Virus record (IMG/VR): IMGVR_UViG_3300030060_004838
Location: 31,976-95,975 of that record
Direction: 5' to 3' (one strand)
Length of the DNA: 64,000 nt
DNA from: a virus
Part shown: positions 5,754-60,789 of the stretch, piece after piece
Layout: each line of letters begins with the position of its first letter
How positions within the stretch are numbered: position 1 is the stretch's first letter
Translations under genes and position numbers: made by a program
The notes under the pieces: generated by a model
Seen by the model: the letters and a program-made list of their open reading frames with translations, nothing else
Told to the model about the DNA's origin: nothing
The model's database searches: none

Positions 5754-5908
5754 TGCGATTCTAATACTGTACAAAATGTGCAGTATAACATAATGATAAT
5801 TTATCATTATAGCAGACATAATTTACAAGAATCTTTATAGACTCAGTATTTTATGTAAATATGGTGAGGAACTGCCTTAAGTCCAACACAAAAAATGGAA
5901 GTGAAGAA

Positions 5909-6226
5909 ATGAGCAAGAATGTAAATGAATTGGAAACAATGTTGAAGGAACAAGTAGAAGCAGGTCTTATTACGGATTTTGAACTCCGTAGAATTATGAG
6001 TCGTGCAACAGGCGGAGTTTATCTTGATGAGAACCAAAATGCACAATTTGAATTGGCAAAAGAATTCATCAATGAAACACTAACTACTCTATCTAACTTG
6101 AATGTTGTAAGTGAAAAGAGAATGGATAGCACACGAAGAAAAATGGAAAAGGCAATTGTAAAGCATATTACAAGTGGCGGAAATCTAACAGATTCAGGTG
6201 CGCCAATTTGGAACGATGAAGTTTGA
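5909..6226 (+). CDS. hypothetical protein
   Basis: ATG after GGAAGTGA SD (MSKNV). Confidence 0.75.
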   Translation: MSKNVNELETMLKEQVEAGLITDFELRRIMSRATGGVYLDENQNAQFELAKEFINETLTTLSNLNVVSEKRMDSTRRKMEKAIVKHITSGGNLTDSGAPIWNDEV

Positions 6227-6248
6227 ATAAAAAAGGAAGTGAAGAAAA

Positions 6249-6455
6249 ATGGTAAAGATAACAATTTTGAATGAAACAGGACACACAGAACTAACTCTAA
6301 GTGCTAATGAAGCATTAGACCAAATTATTGACCACCCTACCCATTGGGCATATATTGATGGTGAATTGGTTACAAGAGAAGAAATTGCTAACATTGATTT
6401 TAATGCGGTTGATGAAGTCGTATTAACACAAGCAATTGTTGGCGGTTCTGTTTAA
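6249..6455 (+). CDS. ubiquitin-like beta-grasp protein (SAMP/ThiS/MoaD-like), precursor ending GG-SV
   Basis: 68 aa; beta-beta-alpha pattern, AYIDGELV...DEVVLTQAIVGG followed by SV; AAAAGGAAGTGA SD. Confidence 0.75.
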   Translation: MVKITILNETGHTELTLSANEALDQIIDHPTHWAYIDGELVTREEIANIDFNAVDEVVLTQAIVGGSV

Positions 6456-6476
6456 GTTTCTAAATAAAATAGAAAT

Positions 6477-6602
6477 CACCCGTAAGGGTTTAGGTGGCAC
6501 ACTATTTATGCGTAAATAGTATTACTAAAGTTAGTGGAACTTACCAAAATCCACACAACACATAGCAGTTTCCCGTCTGCTTTATCAAAACGGGATTTTT
6601 TT
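6477..6602 (+). ncRNA. structured 3' UTR or ncRNA: three hairpins, H-type pseudoknot, U-tract
   Basis: ACCC-GTAA-GGGT; ACTATTTA-TGCG-TAAATAGT; GTGGA/TCCAC; AGCAG(6564)/CTGCT(6577) with TCCCGT(6571)/ACGGGA(6590); T7. Confidence 0.45.
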
Positions 6603-6616
6603 ATTGAGGATTTACT

Positions 6617-7024
6617 ATGAGTAATTTTTGGAGAAAGAGTGAAGGTGCCGATGACTTTATCGAAATAGCGAGGATAGCATTGGGTAAAAATATAAAAGAA
6701 GATTATACTGAATGGTGTCATTATGCAAACCCAATGCATTTTTGTAAATACCCTGTATTTCATAAAGGGTTTGAAACATTATTAGCGGAGTGGAGAAATG
6801 AAGTTAATAGCCCAAAGATACAAAAATCAAGTTATTTAAGTGCAAATTTAAATTTAAAAGTTGCTGATGAATTTGAAGAATGGAGAAATTTATATCTAAT
6901 TCGCAAGGTAGATGATTACCTTAGTAGACACTTAAGATGGTCTAACAGTCAAAACCCAAAACAACAATTTGGTAGAGCAAAAGATATATTTATTTATTTC
7001 CAGAAAGAGGCGAATTATCAATGA
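6617..7024 (+). CDS. hypothetical protein
   Basis: 135 aa, GAGG SD. Confidence 0.7.
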   Translation: MSNFWRKSEGADDFIEIARIALGKNIKEDYTEWCHYANPMHFCKYPVFHKGFETLLAEWRNEVNSPKIQKSSYLSANLNLKVADEFEEWRNLYLIRKVDDYLSRHLRWSNSQNPKQQFGRAKDIFIYFQKEANYQ

Positions 7025-7329
7025 TAAATGACATATTGAAAACTCTTCGTGCGATGCCAAAACTGTTCAAAGAGTTTAGAAAAGAAACAAAATACATTAA
7101 TAGGTTATCAAAAATGGAAAAGAAGGAAGGAATGGTAGGAACTTTTCTTCATGTATTTGAAACAGAATTAATGGACATACTACCAACAGAAGTATTAGTA
7201 TTAATACTAACAGAATTCGTAAAAGAGTATGAAAGCAAAAAAGAAGAACATCAGCATGATATGGATGTTGTAAATATACCTGCTTTTAATGCTTATTGTG
7301 ATAAATATGGGGTAAAAACTGCCCTATGA
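7021..7329 (+). CDS. hypothetical protein
   Basis: ATGA overlap. Confidence 0.7.
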   Translation: MINDILKTLRAMPKLFKEFRKETKYINRLSKMEKKEGMVGTFLHVFETELMDILPTEVLVLILTEFVKEYESKKEEHQHDMDVVNIPAFNAYCDKYGVKTAL

Positions 7330-7339
7330 AATACAAAAT

Positions 7340-7427
7340 GCTAAGGTGGCTGAGTTTGGTTAAAAGCGCAGGGCTTAAATTCCTGTCCAAAAATGGTTCG
7401 TAGGTTCAAATCCTACCCTTAGCACCA
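7340..7427 (+). tRNA. trnL: tRNA-Leu (anticodon UAA), CCA encoded
   Basis: acceptor GCTAAGG/CCTTAGC, anticodon arm CAGGG-CTTAAAT-TCCTG, long variable arm, T-arm GTAGG-TTCAAAT-CCTAC, ACCA end. Confidence 0.93.
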
Positions 7428-7445
7428 ATTCAAAAAGTGATGATT

Positions 7446-7676
7446 ATGTATAGAAACAGAAAAGAAATTAAGAAAATGACAAAAGCAATAGAATCTTTAG
7501 GTGTTGAAATTGTTGATTTTGAAATTAGCAAACATTTTAAGATTCGGGTTAAAAATCCGACAACAGGAACTGTAAAATTAATTACAGTTTCAAGTAGTCC
7601 AAAATGTAAGGGGGTTTATCATGAGATTAAATCCTCAGTAAGAAAAGTTTTTAGAAAAGAAGGTGAAATAATATGA
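7446..7676 (+). CDS. HicA-like (dsRBD-fold) protein
   Basis: SKHFKIRV...LITVSSSP...HEIKSSVRK resembles the HicA alpha-beta3-alpha fold with conserved His. Confidence 0.4.
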   Translation: MYRNRKEIKKMTKAIESLGVEIVDFEISKHFKIRVKNPTTGTVKLITVSSSPKCKGVYHEIKSSVRKVFRKEGEII

Positions 7677-7954
7677 GTTATAAATGTATAAGTTGTGAAA
7701 AAGAGATAGAGGTAGTAGAAACAGGCTCAGAGGAAAAGATATTAAATCCTAAAAAAGCAGTAATGCTTCTTTCTTATGCAGCGTATGGTAGTAAATTTGA
7801 CTATGGTAAAACATCGTATAATTACAGTAGTAAAGTTAGTATGTTTTTTATGTGCGATGATTGCTTTGAAAAGAATATTTCAATGGCTGTTAAATTAACA
7901 ACATTGTCTAATGGTAAAATAGAACCAGCAGTACTACCTAATTCTAATGAATAA
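7673..7954 (+). CDS. Zn-finger hypothetical protein
   Basis: CISC...YGSKFD...CDDC. Confidence 0.65.
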   Translation: MSYKCISCEKEIEVVETGSEEKILNPKKAVMLLSYAAYGSKFDYGKTSYNYSSKVSMFFMCDDCFEKNISMAVKLTTLSNGKIEPAVLPNSNE

Positions 7955-8010
7955 TTTGAAAATAACTAATTATGGACCTAATAAAACCGTAATTTTTTAC
8001 AAAAAACCCT

Positions 8011-8493
8011 ATGATTAAAATTGTAGGTAATATATATGGTGATAAAATGAGAATAACAGAATTTTACAAAGAGTATGACATAGATGAAGAAGCCTACGAT
8101 TTCGTACCAACCAAGATGTTTGAATTAGATTTAAAACAATCAGGATGGAAGATTAAAGAGGGTAAATCTTTATCAAAATTGCATGATAAATTTAATGACT
8201 TAAATATTATCTGTGCTAACCCTAACTTTTATAACGATGGAACAATAATTGCAGAAAGCCGAAAAAGCATAATTCAAGCGAGTGGACACCCTATTATCAA
8301 ATATAATAACAAAGAATATTGGGAAATAGGCCATTTAGTAAAAATTTACGGTGATGAAGCAATAAAAGAAATGGATAAATGGGAGTGGCTTCAAGTAATG
8401 GATTGGATAATAGTAGAAAAGAAAACAAATAAACTTCTACTACAATTTGATTCATGGGAAGATTTACCAACAAGAAAGGAAGTGGAACAATGA
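8011..8493 (+). CDS. hypothetical protein
   Basis: ORF; start may be the later ATG (MRITE) after GGTGA. Confidence 0.7.
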   Translation: MIKIVGNIYGDKMRITEFYKEYDIDEEAYDFVPTKMFELDLKQSGWKIKEGKSLSKLHDKFNDLNIICANPNFYNDGTIIAESRKSIIQASGHPIIKYNNKEYWEIGHLVKIYGDEAIKEMDKWEWLQVMDWIIVEKKTNKLLLQFDSWEDLPTRKEVEQ

Positions 8494-10349
8494 CAAGAGC
8501 AAATAAAATATTAAGTGATGTAACTGTGCATATGAAATACGCAAAATATGTACCTGAGAAAGAAAGAAGAGAAACATGGAGTGATATATGTTTTAGAAAT
8601 ATGCAAATGCATACTAAACAATACCCACAATTAAAAGAACAAATAGAACAGATATATTCTGAGTTTGTAGTAACAAAGAAAGTATTACCTTCTATGCGTT
8701 CTTTACAGTTTGGAGGAAAGCCGATTGAAGTAGCACCCAATAGAATTTATAATTGTGCATATATGCCCGTAGATAATATTGCTGCTTTTTGGGAATCAAT
8801 GTTTTTACTTCTTGGCGGAACAGGCGTAGGATATTCAGTACAGTTTAATCATATAGATAAACTACCAGAAATAAAACAACCTAATTCTAAAAGAACAAGA
8901 AGATATTTAATTGGTGATTCGATTGAAGGTTGGGCTGATGCAGTTAAGGTATTAATTAAATCTTATTTTGGTAGACTTTCAAGCACACCAATATTTGATT
9001 ATTCTGATATTCGTGCAAAAGGTGAAAGATTAATTACTTCTGGAGGAAAAGCACCCGGCCCTCAACCGTTAAAAGAATGTTTAGTTAAAGTTGAAGGAAT
9101 TCTAAAAGATGTTCAAACAGGGGATAGATTATCTCCTATTCAAGCACATGATATTATGTGTCATATTGCTGATGCAGTTTTAGCAGGTGGTATTAGACGA
9201 GCCGCTTTGATTTCTTTATTTAGTGCAGATGATATGGATATGATAACTGCAAAAACGGGTAATTGGTGGGAACTAAATCCACAAAGAGGAAGGGCTAATA
9301 ATTCAGCCGTTCTTATTAGAAGTAGAATTGATAAAGACTATTTTATGAATTTATGGAAAAGAATTGAAGAATCAGGTTCTGGAGAGCCAGGAATTTATTT
9401 TTCAAACGATAAAGATTGGGGAACAAACCCGTGTTGTGAAATTGCATTAAGACCAAATCAATTTTGTAATCTAACAGAAATAAATGTAAGTGATGTTGAA
9501 AGTCAAGAGGATTTAAATTCAAGAGTTACTGCGGCTACCATATTAGGAACTTTACAAGCAGGTTATACCGATTTCCATTATCTAAGAGAAACATGGAAAA
9601 CTACAACAGAAAAGGATGCATTACTTGGTGTTAGTATGACAGGTATTGCTTCTAATAAACTAAAAGGATTAGATTTAAAATTAGCGGCAAGATTATCAAA
9701 GAAAGTTAATGAAACAATTGCTAAAGAAATAGGAATAAAACCTGCGGCAAGAATTACTTGTGTAAAACCTGCGGGAACTACATCTTGTGTTTTAGGAACT
9801 TCAAGTGGTATTCATGCATGGCATGACGATTATTATATTAGAAGGATAAGAGTTGGAAAGAATGAAGCAATTTATAATTATTTAGTTGAAAACCACCCAT
9901 CTATTATTGAAGACGAACAGTTTAGACCACACGATACTGCTGTAATTTCTTTACCACAAAAAGCACCCGAAGGTTCTACAACAAGAAGTGAAGATGCAAT
10001 TCAATTACTTGAGAGAGTAAAAAATATTGCTACTAATTGGGTAAATGAAGGACATACATTAGGTATGAATACTCATAATGTTTCAGCAACCATTTCAATT
10101 AGAAAATGGGAATGGGAAGAAGTTGGAAATTGGATGTGGAATAACAGGAAATTTTACAACGGTTTGTCTGTATTGCCCTATGATGGCGGAACATATGTTC
10201 AAGCCCCATTTGAGTCAATTACAAGGCTAAAATACGACCAAATGATAGCGGGTTTAGATGAGATAGACTTGACTAAAATTATTGAAACAGAAGATAATAC
10301 AGATTTACAGGGCGAGGTTGCTTGTGCAGGTGGCCTTTGTGAAATCTAA
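8490..10349 (+). CDS. nrdJ: class II (adenosylcobalamin-dependent) ribonucleotide reductase
   Basis: YNC, GGIRRAA, TNPCCEI (thiyl Cys), KPAGTTS, C-terminal CAGGLC; no R2 gene in the window. Confidence 0.92.
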   Translation: MTRANKILSDVTVHMKYAKYVPEKERRETWSDICFRNMQMHTKQYPQLKEQIEQIYSEFVVTKKVLPSMRSLQFGGKPIEVAPNRIYNCAYMPVDNIAAFWESMFLLLGGTGVGYSVQFNHIDKLPEIKQPNSKRTRRYLIGDSIEGWADAVKVLIKSYFGRLSSTPIFDYSDIRAKGERLITSGGKAPGPQPLKECLVKVEGILKDVQTGDRLSPIQAHDIMCHIADAVLAGGIRRAALISLFSADDMDMITAKTGNWWELNPQRGRANNSAVLIRSRIDKDYFMNLWKRIEESGSGEPGIYFSNDKDWGTNPCCEIALRPNQFCNLTEINVSDVESQEDLNSRVTAATILGTLQAGYTDFHYLRETWKTTTEKDALLGVSMTGIASNKLKGLDLKLAARLSKKVNETIAKEIGIKPAARITCVKPAGTTSCVLGTSSGIHAWHDDYYIRRIRVGKNEAIYNYLVENHPSIIEDEQFRPHDTAVISLPQKAPEGSTTRSEDAIQLLERVKNIATNWVNEGHTLGMNTHNVSATISIRKWEWEEVGNWMWNNRKFYNGLSVLPYDGGTYVQAPFESITRLKYDQMIAGLDEIDLTKIIETEDNTDLQGEVACAGGLCEI

Positions 10350-10452
10350 TACAATATGTAATAGATAAAAAATGTAGTTTTACTATTTTCTACACGATAG
10401 GATGGATATTCCACCCTTTTCAAAAAAATAGAATTAAAAAGGAAATGATAGA

Positions 10453-10668
10453 ATGAGCGAAAGCAAGGATTATGAAAATGAAGAAAGATATGAAGTGTTT
10501 AGGATAACTTCTTTGAAGTCAAACGGTAGCGTTTGGACAAAACAATACGATAGCAATATTGATTGGAATAAGGTAATACCAATGTTATTATCTAAGTTTC
10601 CACATATTTTGCTAAGTAAGCAAGTAATGAAGACAGACCCACTAACACACTTAATGAATTTGGAGTGA
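10453..10668 (+). CDS. hypothetical protein
   Basis: ORF with SD. Confidence 0.6.
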   Translation: MSESKDYENEERYEVFRITSLKSNGSVWTKQYDSNIDWNKVIPMLLSKFPHILLSKQVMKTDPLTHLMNLE

Positions 10669-10673
10669 TATAA

Positions 10674-10907
10674 ATGAAAAAAGCAGTAGAATTTAGATTG
10701 ATAGAAAGCGAAGAAATGCCACCTGTGGTAATTAAGAAAGATGAAGATACTAACGGATGTATTATTGTATTAAATAGAGCACATACTATTTGGCTTAGTT
10801 TAAATCGTAGTACAATTCCAGGAATTACACAAAGTTTAGCCGAAAAACTAAATCAAATGTGTGATGGTTATTTAGAACAACAATTATTCAATATGGGAAT
10901 GGAGTGA
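10674..10907 (+). CDS. hypothetical protein
   Basis: GGAGTGA SD. Confidence 0.65.
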   Translation: MKKAVEFRLIESEEMPPVVIKKDEDTNGCIIVLNRAHTIWLSLNRSTIPGITQSLAEKLNQMCDGYLEQQLFNMGME

Positions 10908-10912
10908 TTTGA

Positions 10913-12112
10913 ATGGAAGATTTTATTGGACACCATATAGAAGGCGAACATAGACATGAAATTAATATTAATCAAAGCGGGGCTTTCAATAAATCACTAA
11001 TTAATAATTTAGTAGATATAAGTGTATCTAATGATTGGGAAGAAGCAAAACATGAATGGAGAGCAACAGGTAATGTTTGGTATAGACCTATGAGATATTT
11101 AGATACTACAATACAAGAATTACCTGAACCTCATTGTGATAATCACCCTAATTATTGTGTTTGTGGACACCCGATTGCTTGGCATTTTGAAGTAGAAAAT
11201 ACTGAAAATGGTACATTAGAAATTCTTGGTAGTGAACACATTACAAATTGGATGATTATTAGACACTTAAAAGAAAACAAAGGTATTCCTGAAGATGCAA
11301 TTACTGAAGAAAAAATTATTGAATGGATGAAAGAAGCAGTTAAAACTATGAAAGCCGAATGGTGGTGGAAAGAACATGGTGATGATTGGGAAGAAATGTT
11401 TAATGAAGTTAAAGAATTAGATTTAAGAATCAATGTTCGTTCTAATGGACAATATTGGGATTCTTCTACAAAAAGACATGAAGATAAAATGGTTATTGCA
11501 AAAACCAAAACTAATTCATTAGGTAAAATGGCTTCTGTTGTATGGAGATGGAATCACCCTGATAATCCAAGACGACAAATTGATACAAGAGGTTATCCTA
11601 ATGAAAAACTTTGGAGAGATGTGCAATTGTTATTTGCTAAGGCTCAAAGATTTGAAAAGCAATTAGATATACAAATGGAAGAAGTAGAACAAAGAAAATC
11701 ATATATCCGTGAACAACAAGCAAAGCAAGATGAATTGGCTGAACAAAGAAGAATGATGATTAAAGAAGAAGCCATGAAAATTAGAGCAGAAGCAATATAT
11801 GAAAGAGATGATAAAACATTAGCGGAGGCTTGTGAGTATTATGATTTACCACCTTTCACAGTAGAGAAAGGTAATAATGAATGGGAAAGAAATTTCTTGA
11901 AAGATATGAAAGGTAAAATTATTGCAAGAAAACAACTTTCACCAAGACAATTAAACAGAATATTACAAATTATTATGCCCGAAGTGGCTGAAGAAGAACC
12001 TGCAACATCAAAACAAATTAATTATATTAAAAAGTTAGGTGGAGAGGTTTTAGAAAACATGACAAAAACCCAAGCAAGTGATTTGATTGGTGAATTATTA
12101 AGGAGAAATTAA
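10913..12112 (+). CDS. Zn-binding protein with C-terminal PATxKQ helical module
   Basis: CVCGHPI...GSEHI; coiled coil; PATSKQINYIKKLGG...QASDLIGEL. Confidence 0.75.
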   Translation: MEDFIGHHIEGEHRHEININQSGAFNKSLINNLVDISVSNDWEEAKHEWRATGNVWYRPMRYLDTTIQELPEPHCDNHPNYCVCGHPIAWHFEVENTENGTLEILGSEHITNWMIIRHLKENKGIPEDAITEEKIIEWMKEAVKTMKAEWWWKEHGDDWEEMFNEVKELDLRINVRSNGQYWDSSTKRHEDKMVIAKTKTNSLGKMASVVWRWNHPDNPRRQIDTRGYPNEKLWRDVQLLFAKAQRFEKQLDIQMEEVEQRKSYIREQQAKQDELAEQRRMMIKEEAMKIRAEAIYERDDKTLAEACEYYDLPPFTVEKGNNEWERNFLKDMKGKIIARKQLSPRQLNRILQIIMPEVAEEEPATSKQINYIKKLGGEVLENMTKTQASDLIGELLRRN

Positions 12113-12113
12113 A

Positions 12114-13367
12114 ATGGGAACAGTAACATTTAGAGTAAGACATGCAAGCGATGACAGAAACTCAGTATTAGAAACAACACTATCTTGTAATAAATTTACA
12201 AGAGATAGAAATGTAGATATTTGGGCACAAAGACAAAGACAGAATATTTCTAAAGAACCGACAATTGAAAGTATTCACAATACACTTAAGGGAACATTGA
12301 ATATAACAGGATTAGTTAGAAGCGATGAAAAGAAGTCCTTGTTTATGAGAGTAGGTAATTGTAAATATCTAATTAATATGCGTAAAGTAGGAAATAGATA
12401 TATGGCTAATGGAGATTTTGCTAACTTAGATACTATTATGAAAGCAATTAGTAGAACTATTATGCGTTCTGCTTATATTAATGGAGAAGGTCAAGAAGCA
12501 CAAGAAGCATTAGATGATTATTTTCTAAGATGTGTTGAAGTGCCTGAAAATGTTTCTTATGCTATGGAAAATAGAGTGCCATATAAATTCTTTGAGAGAG
12601 ATGGTAGTGAAATCCATGAAAGAAGCACAAGACTTTCTTTAATGAGAATTGCTCAAAACAATTATGCTCTTGAAATTAGTAGTGGTGTTTGGGGAGAAAT
12701 AAATGCTAAGAATCTAAATACATTTATTAATTCTTATTTGTATAATAAGCGTTCAGGAAAATGGTATATGGTTTCTCCTGCTGAACTTTGGTTTAGAACT
12801 GTTGGTACAAAAGGAACTCCTGCACAGATTAAAATTATGAAAGAGTTTTTGAAACAAAATAGAAGAAGTGATTTGGCTGAACAAAGGGCTATGCAATTGT
12901 TTAATGATATGGTCAATAAATATGATACTGTCACAAAAGGAACATTTGAAAGAAATGGAGAAAAGGTTTTGGCTATGTTTGTTAGAGGTAAATATGCTGA
13001 TTGGATGATTGTTGATAATAAATCAAAGCGTGGAATCCAAGATGTAAGCACATATGTTTTGACAACAAAAACATTAGGAGAAGGACAAGCAGTTACTGTT
13101 TTAGATAATGTAATAAATAATACTGACAAAGAACCTTATTGGGCTGGACCGATTTGTATTGATAATTTATCAAGTGGTGCTTCTGTTGGTGACCAATTTG
13201 CAGCAAGAGCATTTGCTTGTATGAATGATACTATGCTTCTTAAATTAGTTTCTACTGTTAGTAGATATATTAAAGGGCATGATGCAGAACAAAATGATAT
13301 AAGGTTGGATTGGGATGCCATGTGTAAATTGTCAAGCAAAGCACCTGAACTTAAACAAAGAGATTAA
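12114..13367 (+). CDS. hypothetical protein, candidate E2-like C-terminal domain
   Basis: 417-aa ORF is solid; function rests only on the GPICIDNL motif and is speculative. Confidence 0.6.
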   Translation: MGTVTFRVRHASDDRNSVLETTLSCNKFTRDRNVDIWAQRQRQNISKEPTIESIHNTLKGTLNITGLVRSDEKKSLFMRVGNCKYLINMRKVGNRYMANGDFANLDTIMKAISRTIMRSAYINGEGQEAQEALDDYFLRCVEVPENVSYAMENRVPYKFFERDGSEIHERSTRLSLMRIAQNNYALEISSGVWGEINAKNLNTFINSYLYNKRSGKWYMVSPAELWFRTVGTKGTPAQIKIMKEFLKQNRRSDLAEQRAMQLFNDMVNKYDTVTKGTFERNGEKVLAMFVRGKYADWMIVDNKSKRGIQDVSTYVLTTKTLGEGQAVTVLDNVINNTDKEPYWAGPICIDNLSSGASVGDQFAARAFACMNDTMLLKLVSTVSRYIKGHDAEQNDIRLDWDAMCKLSSKAPELKQRD

Positions 13368-13938
13368 TTTACCTGTTTGTTCAGTTTGTGGTTGTATTCA
13401 GGCATATAGAATATATGAGGTAAGTGATATACCTAAAAATGAAAAAACATTTAGCACAGACTTAATGATGCTTATGAATGAGTTTGATATAGAAGATAAA
13501 GATGAAGTTATCAAAAATGATAAATATATTTCTTATACTAATATATATTATACTTATGATTTAGCGGAGAGGGCTTGTGCTATCTTATACTATACTATGA
13601 GGGATTTAAATAAACCTGCTATCATGTTGGATTATTGTAAATTTTTGGGATGCAAAACAAGTAGAGTAAGTAGACTTGCAAAAAGAATAGCAAGACATTA
13701 TTCAAATAGTGGAGTGTTTGGTATAAATGATATTGACGAGTTTTTGGATAATATGGAAATCAATAGTAAAGAAATTAGTGAAGCGTGTAAAGCGTGGAAT
13801 GAGCAACAAACCTTGACAAGAGGAATAATTGCGGCATATGTATATGAACACACAACATATACTCAAAAACAAGTGTGTGAAAAATTTGGAGTTAGTTTGC
13901 CAAGATTAAAAAGAAACTTAAGGAAAGTGAGAAAATGA
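13315..13938 (+). CDS. tfb: viral transcription factor B (TFB/TFIIB)-like
   Basis: N-terminal Zn ribbon CVNC...VCSVCG, cyclin-like ACAILYYTMR, C-terminal HTH TQKQVCEKFGVS..RLKRNL. Confidence 0.8.
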   Translation: MPCVNCQAKHLNLNKEINLPVCSVCGCIQAYRIYEVSDIPKNEKTFSTDLMMLMNEFDIEDKDEVIKNDKYISYTNIYYTYDLAERACAILYYTMRDLNKPAIMLDYCKFLGCKTSRVSRLAKRIARHYSNSGVFGINDIDEFLDNMEINSKEISEACKAWNEQQTLTRGIIAAYVYEHTTYTQKQVCEKFGVSLPRLKRNLRKVRK

Positions 13939-14489
13939 AAAAGAGAGATGTATTGATAATAGGCGCAGGTGGAATTGGAAGTTTTCTAATACCATTGTTG
14001 GATAAAGTAGGATTGTATGACATAACAGTTTATGACCCTGATATTGTAGAGGAAAAGAATCTAACATATCAAAACTTTACCAAAGTAGACTTAGAAAAGA
14101 AAAAGGTAGATGCTATGAGTGAAAGATATAATATTGATGCTCAACCATATCCTGTTCTAACAGCAGGACAATTAAAGGGATATGATTTGGTAGTATGTTG
14201 TGCTGATAATTTAGATATTAGAAGAACAATGTATAATTCAAATGTTAAATGGTTAGACTTAAGAGCACAAGCAAGAAACGCTGCTATGATTTCACATTTA
14301 GAAGACCCGAAATTATATACTGTTTTTACAAGTGGACCAGATGGTTCTTTTTCTTGTCAAGGAGAATGGGATGGAAAACCTGAAGGGATTAATTTTATGC
14401 AAGTTGTAATTGCAGGTTATGGCGCACAATGGATTCAAAGATTCTTTACAGGCGACCATGTAGAAAAACACTTTAAAATTAATGGGTGA
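13935..14489 (+). CDS. ThiF/MoeB/E1-like adenylyltransferase (Ubl-activating)
   Basis: IIGAGGIGS, DPDIVEEKNLTYQ, KVDA, CADN..RR, candidate catalytic Cys in SFSCQ. Confidence 0.88.
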   Translation: MKKRDVLIIGAGGIGSFLIPLLDKVGLYDITVYDPDIVEEKNLTYQNFTKVDLEKKKVDAMSERYNIDAQPYPVLTAGQLKGYDLVVCCADNLDIRRTMYNSNVKWLDLRAQARNAAMISHLEDPKLYTVFTSGPDGSFSCQGEWDGKPEGINFMQVVIAGYGAQWIQRFFTGDHVEKHFKING

Positions 14490-14493
14490 TATA

Positions 14494-14817
14494 ATGTCTA
14501 AGATTGATTATAATAAACAATCTAAAAAATTACTAATAGCCATGTTAGAAGAACAAGATGATATTATTAATGCAGTATGTAACTTTATGGGAACATCTAC
14601 TGTTATGGATTTATTTATGTCTTTTAAAGGAGAGGAAGAAGAATGAAAAACGAATGGATTTGGATGAGAGATATTATTAAAAAGATAGAAGATTTAGGAT
14701 ATGCAGTAGTTAATGACATAGGAGATGAAGAAGATGAGTGAATTAATTATAGGAATTATAGGTATGGTATGTTTGTATGTTATAGGAAAATTTCTTTATA
14801 GATGGGAGGAAGAATAA
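14494..14817 (+). CDS. three chained small ORFs (14494-14646, 14643-14741, 14734-14817; the last has one TM helix)
   Basis: translated by hand; each start overlaps the end of the previous ORF. Confidence 0.5.
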
Positions 14818-15350
14818 TGAATTTCTTTTACATAGAAACTTGCCCTGTCGCTATTGCTAAAAGTCATAACAATGCACATTGTATTAAAATGATTTTAGAA
14901 TATGCACAAATGCTATCTACGACTCATAGAGTTGTAGACCAATATTATCATGAAGTAGATGGTAAATATGTATTTGTAGGATTACCCAAAGATATGCAAA
15001 AAGTGTACAAGATTGCTCATTTAAATCACCCCACTACAATTTGGGTTAGAGAATCTGTACAACATTACAATTTTATGTTTGATGTATTTGAAGCATTATG
15101 TGATGAATATACTTATCGTTATGGTAAAGTGCATCAATCAGATAGATTATTAAGAGAGATGTTAAGAAAACCACCATCAAGATTAGAAGATAATGGATTT
15201 GAAGAACCGCCTCAATGTATGCCTGATAAATATAAAGTAGAAGGAAATAGTCTACAAGCCTATCGTAATTTTTACATGGGTGATAAACAATGGAAAGGTT
15301 GGAGAAGTGAATATAAGAAAAGAGATAAACCAAAATGGATGTGTGTATAA
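14817..15350 (+). CDS. pyrimidine-dimer DNA glycosylase (DenV/endonuclease V family)
   Basis: MNFFY...HCIKMILEYAQMLSTTH, HLNHPTTIWVRES, PPQCMPD...AYRNFY. Confidence 0.8.
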   Translation: MNFFYIETCPVAIAKSHNNAHCIKMILEYAQMLSTTHRVVDQYYHEVDGKYVFVGLPKDMQKVYKIAHLNHPTTIWVRESVQHYNFMFDVFEALCDEYTYRYGKVHQSDRLLREMLRKPPSRLEDNGFEEPPQCMPDKYKVEGNSLQAYRNFYMGDKQWKGWRSEYKKRDKPKWMCV

Positions 15351-15544
15351 TGACAGAATGGAAATTAGGAATAGGAACAGGAAATGCAAAATGTAGAGTA
15401 TGTGGTAAGCCAATTAAAGAAGGCCAACCAATGATTAAAATAATTAATTCAAGGATTAGTGGACAGGTTCATTCTAATCCCTTTGAATGTGGAAAAGAAA
15501 GACAAGAACAATTAGGATTTGAATATGTAGGAGAGGAAGTATAA
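15350..15544 (+). CDS. small Zn-finger protein (PARP-type-like)
   Basis: AKCRVCGKPIKEG...H...C. Confidence 0.6.
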   Translation: MTEWKLGIGTGNAKCRVCGKPIKEGQPMIKIINSRISGQVHSNPFECGKERQEQLGFEYVGEEV

Positions 15545-15987
15545 TGATAGAAAGAATGAATGATAATGAACTGTGGGATATGTGTAAAGATTTGATAAAT
15601 GCCGCTTATGTAAATAATTATGATGATGAAGATTTTCATGCATCTATTTGGCAGGTATCAGTAGATTTACTTGAAGGAAAAGAAGTTTCTGTAATTGTAG
15701 ATAAAGATAATAAATTATTTATTAGTAGAGGAACTGCAAGTTTCGTAGACTACAAAAATGAAAATGTAGCAGGTATGAAAATCCCTCTTAAATGCTGGAT
15801 TCATACTCACCCTTTTGGAACTGCTTATTTTAGTAGCACAGATTGGGGAACAATTAATGCCCAAGCACCTATATTAAATTCAGCAATTGTTCTTGGAAAT
15901 AAGGAGAGAATGAAATGGTGGAAGAACGATGGAAAAGAATTTCTGAGCAAGACTCATCTAATGGATTTAGACGAGTGCGAAGAATAA
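15544..15987 (+). CDS. JAB/MPN+ metalloprotease
   Basis: E(VSV)...WIHTHPFGTAYFSSTD fits the JAMM motif E-xn-HxH-x7-S-x2-D. Confidence 0.85.
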   Translation: MIERMNDNELWDMCKDLINAAYVNNYDDEDFHASIWQVSVDLLEGKEVSVIVDKDNKLFISRGTASFVDYKNENVAGMKIPLKCWIHTHPFGTAYFSSTDWGTINAQAPILNSAIVLGNKERMKWWKNDGKEFLSKTHLMDLDECEE

Positions 15988-16337
15988 GATTCCCTGTATT
16001 ATCAAACTTAATTATAGAATGCCCTATTTGTAATGGGGCTAAATGTAATGTTTGTAATCAAACAGGTGAATATGAATTATCTTCAGAACCGTATGTAGAA
16101 ATCCAACAACCTTTGATAATAAAATATATTGTTGATAATTTACCAATTATTGCAAGTGAAATTCAAAGACTATATGGAAAAACACCAACGGTAGAAACTT
16201 ATTTTGTTTCTGAAGAATATGAAATAATTAGAGTCGATTCTCTAAGTGGTTCGGTTTGGATTGCCTTAAACCTTAAAAAATTAGAAAATCCAAAATATTT
16301 TTACAACAAGGAGAGTGTAGATAAATGGTTAGCGTAA
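15915..16337 (+). CDS. Zn-finger hypothetical protein
   Basis: CPICNGAKCNVC; start uncertain. Confidence 0.65.
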   Translation: MVEERWKRISEQDSSNGFRRVRRIRFPVLSNLIIECPICNGAKCNVCNQTGEYELSSEPYVEIQQPLIIKYIVDNLPIIASEIQRLYGKTPTVETYFVSEEYEIIRVDSLSGSVWIALNLKKLENPKYFYNKESVDKWLA

Positions 16338-16612
16338 GAGAAATAAAAAGAATATTTGAGAAAATAGCACCCGATAGACAATTGCCTTTACCTGCAATTA
16401 TAGAATATCAAACAAGAGCCGAAAAGATTTTGGAACAGTTTGCTGAATTATGTAATTTAGAAGCAGGTGGAGATATGACAAAAACAAGATTGACAGTAAA
16501 TCATGTGAAGTTAGCATCAGTTAATTTTAACGATAGAGTTGTTGAAAGAAAAGAAGAAGAATTGGAATTTGGTGAATGGAATACAGATGAAGGAGATGAA
16601 GAAGATGAGTGA
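16325..16612 (+). CDS. histone-fold protein with acidic tail
   Basis: three-helix pattern REIKRIF / AIIEYQTRAEKILEQFAELCNLEA / TRLTVNHVKLA (compare archaeal KTIKAEDIELA, H2A RITPRHLQLA). Confidence 0.65.
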   Translation: MVSVREIKRIFEKIAPDRQLPLPAIIEYQTRAEKILEQFAELCNLEAGGDMTKTRLTVNHVKLASVNFNDRVVERKEEELEFGEWNTDEGDEEDE

Positions 16613-16769
16613 ATGGTATGAAGATTGGAGTAATATAAGAGCATTAATTAGATTTTTACACGATGTAAAAGGTGTAGATTTTGATAATCTAATGTATGCT
16701 ATGGAAAAACCGTGGAAATATAATGATGAATATAAAGAAATGAGAGAATTGGAGAGTGAAGAAGAATGA
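16605..16769 (+). CDS. hypothetical protein
   Basis: start at MSEWY, overlapping the histone gene end. Confidence 0.55.
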   Translation: MSEWYEDWSNIRALIRFLHDVKGVDFDNLMYAMEKPWKYNDEYKEMRELESEEE

Positions 16770-21634: not shown

Positions 21635-22873
21635 ATGAATGAAAGAATAGAAAATGAATTGAATGGTTTGGCTACCAAATTAGGTAAGTCCGAAGAAGAA
21701 ATGTTAGCAAAGTTTAATGAAATTGCTGAGAGTAATAACCTTGATTTAGAAAATGAGCGACAGTCTATGGTTGCACTAACTCTAACAAGAAACTTTGTGC
21801 GAGGTTCTTTGAAAGGAAATACATCATCAAGGAGAGGCGGATATGGTAATGATGCTTTTGGATTTGTTGTTGGTAGTGAACCTGCAAGAGATGTACAAGA
21901 ATGGAGTAGAAAAAGATTGCTAAGTGATTATAATAGTAATTCTAATACTGTGTTTAATGAAGAAAGATGTGCTGAAGTTACACTAACAGATGCAGGATAT
22001 GAAAAGAGTCAAGTTGTTAATGGTGATGTTCAAACAAAGACAATTCCTCAATTACCAAATTCTGCTATTGAAGTAGATGAGAATAAGTGGATTGTACCTA
22101 TTGATAATATTAAAGCATTTATGAGTGGAGATTCTAACCCTCGATATGGTAAGCCTCTACCTGCTGAAGAATTTAGAAGGAGAGTACATTTGATTGCTAA
22201 GAAAGATGGTGGCGATTTCCAATATTGGACTTTTGGTTTGAAGAATATTGCCGCTAAAGAATGGGATGTAAAAAACTTTGAATGGCTACATCTTAATGCT
22301 ATCTTTAATGATGATAGAAATGCTTGTTATGGTATTAAGGGAAGAACACTTTCTTCTCTACAATATAATGCTAACTTAGATGAAGATGATGATTTATATG
22401 TTGGTAATCTACCTTCTATGGAAGATTTACTTGTAGAATGTATGGGTGATTATATTGCTGATTTGTTAGAAATTGAAGATTATCATTCAACAATTATGTC
22501 AAATCCAGGAATGAAACTATGTATTACTGATGGAATTGTTAGCAGTATGAATTTGACTGTTAATGAAAAGACAGGAAATAGAGTATTGTGGATTGAACCT
22601 GCTGATGCAAGTTATGGTTTTGAAGAAGCAGATATTCCTGATTCAACCCCATGTTGGATTCCTTCTAATGTAGATATTGATTTTGGTGTAGGTAGTGATG
22701 TTATTATTATCGGAAGAACAAATCAAACACAAAAGAGAGATGAAGATGGTAATTATCTTGAAGATGAATATAATCCTGTTTCTTTGAACATTTATGGTAT
22801 TCTACCGAGAGTTGCTCTTGGTGCGCCTAATGAAGTTGCAGAAGCAGTAGATGATGATTTAAATTATTGGTGA
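21635..22873 (+). CDS. RPA/SSB-like single-stranded DNA-binding protein
   Basis: archaeal RPA-like N-terminal helices, OB-like C-terminal region, acidic-aromatic tail DDDLNYW, replication-module context. Confidence 0.6.
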   Translation: MNERIENELNGLATKLGKSEEEMLAKFNEIAESNNLDLENERQSMVALTLTRNFVRGSLKGNTSSRRGGYGNDAFGFVVGSEPARDVQEWSRKRLLSDYNSNSNTVFNEERCAEVTLTDAGYEKSQVVNGDVQTKTIPQLPNSAIEVDENKWIVPIDNIKAFMSGDSNPRYGKPLPAEEFRRRVHLIAKKDGGDFQYWTFGLKNIAAKEWDVKNFEWLHLNAIFNDDRNACYGIKGRTLSSLQYNANLDEDDDLYVGNLPSMEDLLVECMGDYIADLLEIEDYHSTIMSNPGMKLCITDGIVSSMNLTVNEKTGNRVLWIEPADASYGFEEADIPDSTPCWIPSNVDIDFGVGSDVIIIGRTNQTQKRDEDGNYLEDEYNPVSLNIYGILPRVALGAPNEVAEAVDDDLNYW

Positions 22874-25830: not shown

Positions 25831-26860
25831 TTTAACTTATGATGATATTAGTATTATACCGAGTATGTCTGATATAAAATCAAGAAGTCATTGTGATACA
25901 GCAGTTGGATTCGGCAATTTTAATTTAAATGTGCCATTAATTGCTTCACCAATGGACACAGTTTGCGGTTCAGAAATGTGTATTGAATTAGCAAAACTTG
26001 GTGGGATTGGAGTATTGCATAGATTTCAAAATATCAAAGAACAGGTAGCATTATGCTATGATATTGAAGCAGAAGTAAGAGGACAATATATTGCTGCAAT
26101 TGGTGTAGGCCAAAGAGGTAAAAATAGATTTGATTCTTTAGTAGGTTATACTAATATTCAAGGTGTCTGTATTGATGTAGCACATGGCGACCATGAATTA
26201 GTAGGTGAAATGATTTCTTATATTAAAGAAGAATTTGAAGATGTACATGTAATGGCAGGTAATATTGTAACTAAAGGTGCGGCTGAAAGATTAATTGAAG
26301 CAGGTGCTGATTCTTTAAGAGTAGGAATAGGTAATGGTTCTATGTGTGAAACAAGAATTAGAGCAGGTGTAGGAGTTCCTCAAGCAACAGCATTATTAGA
26401 TATTGCATATCATATAAATGAAGTTTTAGACTTAGATGAAATACCATATATTATTGCTGATGGTGGTTGTAAAACAGTAGGAGATATTCCTAAAGCAATT
26501 GCTCTTGGTGCTGATGCAGTTATGATAGGTTCTTTATTTGCAGGAACAAAAGAAACTCCTGGAATTATATCTAAAATGGGTCAATGGCCTAATGAACAAT
26601 TATACAAAAAGTATCAAGGTTCAGCATCTATTGATTCTAAAACAGCAAGGGGTGAAGAAACTAAAAATGTAGAGGGTAATTCTAAAATTACACCATACAA
26701 AGGAAAGGTAAGAAGAATAGTTGAAGATATATCTGATGGAATTAAAAGTTCTATGAGTTATGTTGGGGCATATACAATTGCTGATTTCCAAACTAAAGCA
26801 AAGTTTTGTAGAGTTACACAAGCAGGACAATTAGAAGCAAAACCACACGGATTATATTAG
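25808..26860 (+). CDS. IMPDH/GMP reductase family protein, CBS-less
   Basis: [57 protein letters not shown]. Confidence 0.9.
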
Positions 26861-60749: not shown

Positions 60750-60789
60750 ATTTTTCACTTCCTTTTTTTATTTTGGATTCTTATAAGAA

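Follow-up and report, generated by a model that had tools for sequence, protein, structure and literature searches.

A candidate ubiquitin-like conjugation system carried by a magrovirus-type virus of marine archaea

The 95,975-bp (96-kb) genome of a magrovirus-type archaeal tailed virus, an ocean virus of marine archaea, raises the question of whether a virus can possess a ubiquitin-like (Ubl) tagging pathway of its own, or whether its small Ubl protein, its E1-like enzyme and its JAMM protease serve sulfur transfer instead. The original prediction, made on a window of 64,000 nucleotides (the whole stretch of DNA that was analysed), joined these three genes into one pathway and favoured protein conjugation. 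Reading of the open reading frames confirms all three on the + strand at the predicted positions, and a fourth gene, encoding a 417-aa protein with a candidate E2-like domain, is now placed beside them. Together the four genes occupy 9.7 kb, interspersed with unrelated genes. We consider it moderately probable that they constitute a virus-owned Ubl-E1-E2-like-JAMM conjugation system that works in the manner of the BilABCD system without being a member of it at the sequence level; as read from the genes alone, the virus probably tags proteins itself. The magrovirus papers that could be searched contain no description of the four-gene set.

The Ubl precursor (6249..6455, + strand; ORF, family alignment, AF2 model and fold matches) is 68 aa long and ends in AIVGG-SV followed by TAA, with G65-G66 encoded at 6441-6446 and the S67-V68 cap at 6447-6452. 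Its family comprises 126 clusters with three invariant motifs in the alignment, NETGHTEL, HPTHW and AIVGG. The cap that follows AIVGG varies freely in length and sequence (0-24 residues in the alignment; 1-24 variable residues after the GG among 120 listed relatives), often contains or starts with Cys (GG-CY, GG-C, GG-SC), and is missing in 8 of 80 IMG/VR loci, where the protein ends in a bare GG. The AF2 model is beta-grasp-like and nearly all fold-search matches are MoaD, TtuB, ThiS or ubiquitin-like chains; the protein is thus predicted to be a beta-grasp, as originally proposed. No match was found in Pfam (including ThiS, PF02597), NCBIfam or PHROG, and the family profile retrieved nothing from PDB sequences at E-values up to 10. 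The sole Lys is K3, in agreement with the prediction of a single one. Because R43 is the last basic residue ahead of the GG, tryptic digestion of conjugates would leave a remnant of 23 residues, and diGly proteomics would not work in the form proposed.

The Shine-Dalgarno-like GGAAGTGA (6235..6242, + strand, by direct sequence reading) lies 6 nt ahead of the start codon of the Ubl gene. The capsid gene had been said to use the same element, and GGAAGTGA does precede it (60755-60762, - strand), with a AAAAAAGGAAGTGAA context common to both upstream regions. The window holds seven copies of GGAAGTGA against 1.57 expected, a number reached in none of 100 shuffles. About 115 nt past the Ubl stop, a TCCCGT...ACGGGA hairpin followed by T7 (6571..6602, + strand) looks like a terminator on direct reading; a consensus scan did not list it on the + strand. 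With such a terminator-like hairpin, the Ubl gene would be a separate, well-translated unit.

The JAMM/MPN+ metalloprotease (JAB; 15544..15987, + strand; motif, alignment and profile matches) has 147 aa and carries E47 together with WIHTHPFGTAYFSSTD, which reads HxHx7Sx2D. The JAMM motif is complete, and E47, H87, H89, S97 and D100 are invariant in 23 sequences. The match to Prok-JAB (PF14464; E 8e-4, 19.7 bits) lies under the Pfam cut-off of 25, and with E-values from 1e-4 to 0.03 the family profile matches AMSH-LP, AMSH, Sst2 and an archaeal Rpn11-like protein, reaching AMSH-LP (E 1e-4) across the motif region only. All 7 relatives that combine a bare-GG Ubl with sufficient flank keep the protease, and its retention alongside an uncapped Ubl supports conjugation over sulfur transfer.

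The adenylating enzyme (13935..14489, + strand; Pfam ThiF match, alignment and PDB profile search) has 184 aa and is, to judge from its sequence, a real but minimal ThiF/E1 enzyme. It matches Pfam ThiF (PF00899) with an E-value of 4.4e-16 and 59.2 bits (cut-off 28.1), across profile positions 20-129 of 238 only. The family (693 clusters of ~185 aa) conserves GAGGIGS, D34/D36, K41-N42-L-T-Y45-Q46, K57, CCADN (D91), R96, WLDLRxQxR and SFSC141QG, the GAGGIGS loop and the Asp of CCADN being invariant in 23 members. The only invariant cysteines are C88, C89 and C141, the last of which, in SFSCQG, lies 50 residues past D91; in ThiF and MoeB the loop Cys follows the equivalent Asp by 57 residues. Some features weigh against a role in conjugation: the invariant Tyr45 aligns with the usual Arg of NLxRQ (NLTYQN vs NLNRQN of 9egc), the family alignment has no CxxC zinc pairs of the ThiF/MoeB type, and likeness to known E1s is confined to the first ~100 residues. 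The protein is also shorter than MoeB and ThiF chains (184 vs 249-253 aa). NCBIfam matches are all far below their cut-offs, the UbaA model giving 32 bits against a cut-off of 450 and being ~85 residues longer (184 vs 270 positions). The viral E1 matches Cap2 chains and the PADLOC E1-E2 models by way of its Rossmann part.

The fourth gene (12114..13367, + strand; ORF and a family of 290 clusters, none named) encodes a virus-specific 417-aa protein that is a candidate E2-like carrier or ligase. N-terminal alpha/beta domains of unassigned fold are predicted to be followed by a C-terminal UBC/UEV-like domain (residues ~250-400; 12861..13313, + strand). Two independent fold searches listed mostly E2, UEV and RWD chains, colinear over residues 250-400 and with weak scores, and UQ_con, Prok-E2_D or E2-CBASS domains are present in the protein’s neighbours by language model; a UBC/E2 fold is therefore probable for the C-terminal domain, the matches being weak but consistent. 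Cys348 (codon 13155-13157), within GPICIDNL, follows the last strand of this domain and precedes the helix that comes next, and the Cys of GPICIDN is at least 97% conserved among ~195 family members. The stretch from the fourth strand to Cys348 contains a variable loop (residues 322-335) that is modelled with low confidence. There is no conserved His-Pro-Asn (HPN) before Cys348 and no invariant His in the C-terminal domain. Counting against the conjugation reading, sequence methods (Pfam, HMMER, PADLOC) gave no link to any E2 family: the protein has no Pfam, PHROG or PADLOC match, Pfam was also blank on 21 family members, PF00179 had no match in the whole genome, and a HMMER profile of the family searched against 1.84 billion representatives returned its own family only.

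The E2-like gene is coupled to the E1 gene via overlapping ORFs. It starts 1 nt past the stop of the preceding ORF, and its 3′ end overlaps by 53 nt the gene for a 207-aa TFB (TFIIB-like) homolog (13315..13938, + strand), which in turn overlaps the E1 gene at ATGA. A conserved one-Cys protein with a probable UBC-like domain, coupled in this way to the E1 gene, supports conjugation over sulfur transfer. The JAB start overlaps the stop of its own preceding ORF (TAATGA). The TFB assignment derives from relatives, whose ~290-aa proteins at this position have matches to both Zn_Ribbon_TF and the TFIIB repeat; the 207-aa homolog of this virus has weak HTH and zinc-ribbon matches alone. The TFB gene has no obvious role, yet it is kept at the same conserved position.

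Across relatives, the order Ubl, E2-like, E1, JAB is constant, although RNR and other genes are present in some and absent from others, and the gene block spans as little as 4.1 kb in some of them. Each of the 36 E1-seeded loci that extend at least 9.9 kb upstream contains all four genes. Of 80 loci seeded with the Ubl, 76 include the 417-aa gene, as does every E1-seeded locus whose upstream flank is long enough; JAB occurs in all 78 loci for which downstream flank is available. Co-occurrence of Ubl, E1 and JAB had been put forward as a check on the pathway; wherever a related viral locus has sufficient flank, the three stand together with order and strand preserved, and they were never found apart in the sampled contigs. 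As an argument for a common pathway this co-occurrence is weak evidence, because the genomes all come from a single virus lineage whose gene order is conserved; unrelated genes lie within the block as well. The original reading of one pathway that favours conjugation is supported: three of the four refutation tests named for it were run (the fold of the Ubl, conservation of its GG and co-occurrence of the genes), and none refuted it.

The chemical steps of this pathway, the transfer of the Ubl to the 417-aa protein and the protein targets, host or viral, are all inferred, as follows. The Ubl would be produced as a capped precursor (AIVGG-SV) from a separate, strongly translated gene, and the JAMM protease would take off the cap, exposing the Gly-Gly, and probably also cut Ubl conjugates. 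The 184-aa E1 would adenylate the Gly-Gly carboxylate with ATP, and the Ubl would probably be loaded onto its invariant loop Cys141 and then be handed to Cys348 in the UBC-like C-terminal domain of the 417-aa protein. Targets may be chosen by the N-terminal domains of that protein together with its variable pre-Cys loop.

The best-surviving alternative, which we regard as unlikely, is that the Ubl is a sulfur carrier, trimmed by JAB and adenylated by the E1, whose thiocarboxylate gives sulfur to tRNA, a nucleotide or a cofactor; the sulfurtransferase would be supplied by host enzymes or by the one-Cys 417-aa protein, the invariant Cys of which could bear a persulfide. JGI labels several Ubl family members ‘sulfur carrier protein ThiS’, the E1 scores highest with ThiF-type models, and capped GG carriers trimmed by a JAB protease exist in sulfur pathways as well (QbsE with QbsD, CysO with Mec+). 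In QbsE/QbsD/QbsC (thioquinolobactin synthesis) and CysO/Mec+, a short cap after the GG is removed by the JAMM protease before the E1-like enzyme acts, and the viral Ubl likewise has a GG with a short cap and a JAMM protease; the many Cys-bearing viral caps resemble that of QbsE (GG-CF). The Qbs and CysO/Mec+ operons, however, hold a rhodanese-fused E1 and sulfur-accepting biosynthetic enzymes, and neither was found in the viral genome. The viral E1 has no rhodanese domain, and the whole 95,975-bp genome yields no match to PF01171 (PP-loop), PF00581 (rhodanese) or PF02391 (MoaE), no PP-loop thiolase gene of the TtuA/NcsA type, and for ThiG (PF05690) only a 15-bit cross-match inside an IMPDH/GMP-reductase ORF, which bears out the absence of such partners noted at the outset. 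A sulfur carrier is further disfavoured by the lack of a Pfam ThiS match for the Ubl, by fold matches in which MoaD and TtuB are level with ubiquitins to within 1 Z unit, and by the C-terminal domain of the 417-aa protein, which fits an E2/UEV fold and not a sulfurtransferase fold. Host enzymes could still act as sulfur acceptors.

It is more doubtful still that Ubl, E1 and JAB make up a whole conjugation system of the SAMP type, to which the 417-aa protein would be an unrelated core gene or a target. Haloferax sampylation, in which the E1 UbaA and the SAMPs suffice and HvJAMM1 reverses the modification, is an archaeal precedent; the E2 assignment is built on weak scores, and a TFB gene of no obvious role occupies the same conserved position. 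Against this stand the near-invariance of the GPICIDN Cys across the family, the convergence of fold searches and language-model neighbours on the E2 clan, the strict co-occurrence of the 417-aa gene with Ubl, E1 and JAB, and the low UbaA score of the viral E1. Very improbable is a set of core genes that share a syntenic early region but function independently, with a ThiF-like enzyme that acts on some other substrate, for instance a peptide or nucleotide, as do MccB, PaaA and TcdA: the E1 profile matches these three about as well as true E1s in the PDB profile search, the conserved block also holds unrelated genes (TFB, RNR, a DNA-binding protein), and in crAss-like phages, too, a ThiF-like gene is accompanied by a metalloprotease-domain gene (no Ubl being annotated within the 8.3 kb viewed), but an invariant GG with a freely varying cap, a JAMM protease and an E1 are mutually dependent parts.

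A virus-owned conjugation system, the reading preferred here, has partial counterparts among known systems. CBASS type II Cap2/Cap3 likewise joins E1 and E2 activities, predicted ones in the viral case, to a JAMM protease, but Cap2 has E2 and E1 fused in one protein and conjugates the cyclase itself, a separate Ubl is missing from CBASS, and the likeness of the viral E1 to Cap2 is restricted to residues ~2-110; the CBASS E1-E2 models, through their Rossmann part, are the only PADLOC models to match. SAMPs have a bare GG end, need no E2 and are also used in sulfur transfer. Sampylation in Haloferax volcanii (SAMP1-3, UbaA, HvJAMM1; PMC4443979, PMC4895103) is also archaeal, and like the viral set it employs a JAMM protease, a ThiF-type E1 of one domain and a small protein of ThiS/MoaD size, predicted in the virus to be a beta-grasp, that has a GG end; the viral set differs in its candidate E2 and in an E1 that scores 32 bits against the 450-bit cut-off of the UbaA model and is ~85 residues shorter than that model. 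The Asgard archaeal virus Nidhogg also has ThiF/E1-like genes, which were read as part of a ubiquitin system with host Ubl and E2 assumed, E1 homologs only being described (bioRxiv 10.1101/2021.07.29.454249), whereas the magrovirus-type virus carries a Ubl, a protease and a candidate E2 as well.

The closest parallel in working is found in the bacterial BilABCD systems, above all Type II, which consists of the Ubl BilA, the E2 BilB, the JAMM protease BilC and the E1 BilD (PMC10557695). BilABCD is a bacterial defence operon, whereas the viral genes are carried by an archaeal virus and scattered over 9.7 kb among unrelated genes. BilD combines two adenylation domains, one inactive and one active, with a separate, mobile Cys domain that is held by zinc (PMC10557695), and the viral E1 is a single 184-aa domain; unlike BilB, the E2-like domain forms the end of a 417-aa protein with no detectable sequence similarity to any E2. 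Both sets are without an E3 and have the roles of Ubl, JAMM protease and E1 in common, joined in the virus by a candidate E2. BilA bears up to nine variable residues after its conserved Gly, which BilC trims, and in BilB strand 4 is joined to the catalytic Cys by a loop that is variable and disordered (PMC10557695); the viral Ubl likewise has variable residues past its conserved Gly, and the E2-like protein is predicted to have a variable loop between strand 4 and its Cys.

Comparative analysis supports the single pathway that the original prediction had drawn from three genes, those for a ubiquitin-like protein (Ubl), a ThiF-type E1 and a JAB protease, and extends it by a probable fourth component, a 417-aa protein with E2-like features. 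The window is a 64-kb part of one viral contig of 95,975 bp, with an archaeal-type replication set in the plus-strand half (family B DNA polymerase, RFC-like AAA protein, ATP-dependent DNA ligase, ERCC4/XPF nuclease, and class II ribonucleotide reductase) and tailed-virus structural genes in the minus-strand half (SU10/HK97-type capsid protein, S78 prohead protease, and tail tube protein). Relatives of its genes are found on 90-100 kb contigs from marine metagenomes, and the gene content and relatives together fit the magroviruses, which infect Marine Group II archaea (PMC5434244). A search of GenBank phages gave no close relative.

The Ubl is encoded, as predicted, by a 68-aa ORF (6249-6455, + strand) with the C-terminus AIVGG-SV. 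A search of 5.8 billion proteins recovered a family of 126 clusters, nearly all without a name; a few members are called 'sulfur carrier protein ThiS' by JGI. The motifs NETGHTEL, HPTHW, and AIVGG are invariant in a 29-member alignment, and the tail after the GG varies freely, its length being 1-24 residues among the database sequences and 0-9 residues at 80 IMG/VR loci, the commonest cap being two residues of which the first is N, S or C. Judged from sequence, a fixed GG with an unconstrained cap behind it marks a modifier whose activation would depend on prior trimming. The elements of an AF2 model (pLDDT 76) follow beta-grasp order, and its Foldseek matches, with weak E values, are nearly all to ubiquitin, NEDD8, and ThiS; the family profile gave zero matches against PDB sequences. 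Among the capped family members, N, S or C directly follows the GG in 74 of 118, and the last residue is often Y or C (GG-CY, GG-NY, GG-SC). Three histidines (H12, H29, H32) are also invariant and could conceivably form a metal site or a recognition surface. A tRNA-Leu gene (anticodon UAA) lies at 7340-7427, about 0.9 kb downstream of the Ubl gene.

The ribosome-binding site that the Ubl gene was said to share with the capsid gene, GGAAGTGA, is real and over-represented, with 7 copies in the window (plus strand, 5897, 6235, 21622, and 23330; minus strand, 60755, 61541, and 1250) versus 1.6 expected. It stands upstream of both of these genes, of the genes at 21635 and 23343, and of an internal ATG in ORF 5861-6226 that is likely the true start (about 5909). 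Another copy falls within the prohead protease ORF, where it may mark a nested scaffold start.

The JAB protease corresponds to the predicted 147-aa ORF (15544-15987, + strand) and has a complete JAMM motif (E47 and H87-x-H89-x7-S97-xx-D100). Its score against Pfam Prok-JAB is under the cut-off; a profile built from 23 family members, in which all five motif residues are invariant, matches AMSH-LP, AMSH, Sst2, and an archaeal Rpn11-like protein (E 1e-4 to 0.03). The Ubl ends in a bare GG in 8 of 80 relatives, and the JAB, E1, and E2-like genes are kept in all seven of these that have enough flanking sequence. Retention of the JAB alongside bare-GG Ubls means that its role exceeds cap trimming, and cleavage of conjugates would be the obvious second job. 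Most JAB homologs in the 23-sequence alignment carry an acidic tail at the C-terminus, EEE or similar, as do the products of small ORFs at 14482-14646, 16325-16612, and 16539-16769; these tails may be explained by a GAGGAGGA-type ribosome-binding site of the next gene lying within the coding sequence.

The E1 is likewise found where it was predicted, as a 184-aa ORF (13935-14489, + strand) that matches Pfam ThiF with 59 bits along the profile's first half alone and scores far under the cut-offs of the NCBIfam ThiF, MoeB, PRTRC-ThiF, and UbaA models. Its family comprises 693 clusters, almost all of 180-200 aa, in which the Gly loop, D34, D36, K41, N42, Q46, K57, D91-N92, R96, R110, R114, and C141 (in SFSCQG) are invariant. 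The position of the NLxRQ Arg, which is Arg in all aligned E1s, is an invariant Tyr in the viral enzymes, and the zinc-binding CxxC pairs are absent. Likeness to solved E1-like proteins is limited to the first ~100 residues; the second half, in which the Ubl-holding part is expected to lie, is family-specific. From these features we infer that the viral E1 would be an active yet minimal adenylating enzyme. The family is nearly confined to viruses: E1 patterns scanned against 185,579 GTDB species genomes matched three loci alone, in bacterial MAGs named Maricaulis sp. and Altibacter sp., and these contigs are probably magrovirus DNA that was binned wrongly. In crAss-like phages a ThiF-like protein, gp76, is encoded directly after a 'metalloprotease domain' protein, gp77, in the replication module (Bacteroides phage crAss001, NC_049977.1 81394-83792), and gp76 is ~30% identical to the viral E1 over the latter's first 108 residues.

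The 417-aa ORF (12114-13367, + strand) starts 1 nt past the stop of the preceding ORF and overlaps by 53 nt a TFB (TFIIB-like) gene (13315-13938, + strand), which lies between it and the E1 gene and overlaps the E1 start (ATGA). TFB relatives at the same position are ~290 aa in length and contain the zinc ribbon and the cyclin repeat of TFIIB; in the window's clade the protein is shortened to 207 aa. A conserved 399-aa protein of unassigned family (10913-12112; conserved C82, C84, 'HF..EN', and 'WRWNHPDN') is encoded upstream of the E2-like gene here, with a 1-nt gap, and directly upstream of the Ubl gene in most relatives.

By sequence the 417-aa protein stands apart. It has no match in Pfam, PHROG or PADLOC; Pfam at E 10 gave scattered single matches for 21 family members, the family profile drew chance-level rows only from PDB sequences, and a profile of the C-terminal domain recovered its own family alone from 1.84 billion representatives. 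That family consists of 290 clusters, none of them named, and a viral structure library returned three family members and nothing else. A Foldseek search of the PDB with the AF2 model (pLDDT 78) places Rad6, Ubc2, UbcH5, and UBE2A high in its ranking (probability 0.6-0.8, E 0.04-0.1), and a second search had the same outcome, the alignments spanning E2 domains over their full length. In a language-model comparison, the clusters nearest to residues 232-417 carry UQ_con, Prok-E2_D or E2-CBASS, at scores (0.76-0.79) that serve as leads only. Cys348, at least 97% conserved in ~195 members, stands directly after the last strand in the stretch GPICIDNL, which we take to resemble the G-x-I-C-L-D-I-L of canonical E2s. 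It is preceded in the model by a variable, low-confidence loop. The bacterial E2 BilB has the same kind of variable loop before its Cys, proposed to pick targets (Chambers et al., PMC10557695). The 417-aa protein is a probable fourth component of the pathway. A predicted complex of E1, Ubl(1-66), and residues 232-417 gave an ipSAE of 0.00 and was counted neither way. A role as a Cys protease was rejected, the C-terminal domain having no invariant His.

The four genes, each present in one copy in this genome, keep a constant order among relatives (Ubl, E2-like, (TFB), E1, JAB), with ribonucleotide reductase and other genes varying within a block that spans 4.1-10.2 kb from Ubl to JAB; E1 and JAB adjoin or overlap in ~10 loci. 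Among 80 Ubl-seeded IMG/VR loci the E1 is present in 74, the JAB in 71, and the 417-aa gene in 76, and the examined cases of missing genes are loci that end early downstream. Seeding with the E1 (80 loci) recovered all four genes in 36 of 36 loci with at least 9.9 kb upstream and the JAB in 78 of 78 with downstream flank. Co-occurrence alone proves little, because the contigs all come from one virus lineage whose synteny is conserved, and the block also contains unrelated genes; the biochemical interdependence of the parts is the stronger argument.

We lean towards a four-part conjugation scheme of Ubl, E1, E2-like protein and JAB, since the JAB is kept with bare-GG Ubls and an E2-like candidate accompanies it. 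On such conjugates trypsin would leave behind 23 Ubl residues (E44-G66), which makes standard diGly enrichment unsuitable. The main alternative is that the Ubl carries sulfur. As originally claimed for the window, its usual partners are missing: a PP-loop thiolase, rhodanese, MoaE, and true ThiG were all without a match in the whole genome. Host enzymes could take the sulfur, however, the structures nearest the Ubl are sulfur carriers, and sulfur pathways include capped carriers trimmed by a JAB; for these reasons sulfur transfer is retained as an unlikely but serious reading. Conjugation of the SAMP type by the E1 alone, which would leave the E2-like candidate outside the pathway, seems less likely still. 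A 15-bit ThiG match at 26405-26557 was rejected, as it lies within an IMPDH/GMP-reductase TIM-barrel ORF, and small ORFs near the gene set had no family match.

Extending the four-part scheme, we propose tentatively, and a little short of calling it probable, that all magroviruses carry a private and complete Ubl cascade that tags host or viral proteins during infection, with the smallest E1 known (~185 aa, no zinc site, no NLxRQ Arg) and an E2-like family without sequence links to known E2s; the position of the TFB gene, flanked by those for the E2-like protein and the E1, may hint at a link to transcription. To our knowledge, prokaryotic Ubl conjugation has so far been shown in cells for archaeal sampylation and for bacterial Bil and CBASS defence. 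Here its logic would be a core module, strictly conserved, in a virus lineage, and this carrier is both unexpected and of ecological importance: magroviruses rank with the most abundant viruses of ocean surface waters, and their hosts are some of the ocean's most abundant archaea. If true, viruses of prokaryotes, and not only those of eukaryotes, would use Ubls to rewrite host or viral proteins, the 184-aa E1 would offer a natural minimal enzyme for study, and an E2-like family beyond all current sequence models would bear on the origin of E1-E2 cascades.

In the literature searched on archaeal viruses, the sole comparable report found is of E1-like genes in Asgard archaeal viruses (bioRxiv 10.1101/2021.07.29.454249). 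The main text of the magrovirus literature searched leaves ubiquitin, ThiF, and JAB unmentioned; one supplement includes moeB (K21029, adenylyltransferase) and PF03435 among auxiliary metabolic genes, an entry that is probably this viral E1. The closest working analogue is bacterial Type II BilABCD, in which as many as nine residues follow the Gly of the Ubl, a JAMM protease pre-processes the Ubl, the E2 has a variable loop, and there is no E3 (PMC10557695). The viral E1 differs in architecture, however, the viral sequences showed no Bil-type similarity, and the viral genes do not form an operon, which places the set outside the Bil family; part of its logic is also common to archaeal sampylation and to CBASS Cap2/Cap3.
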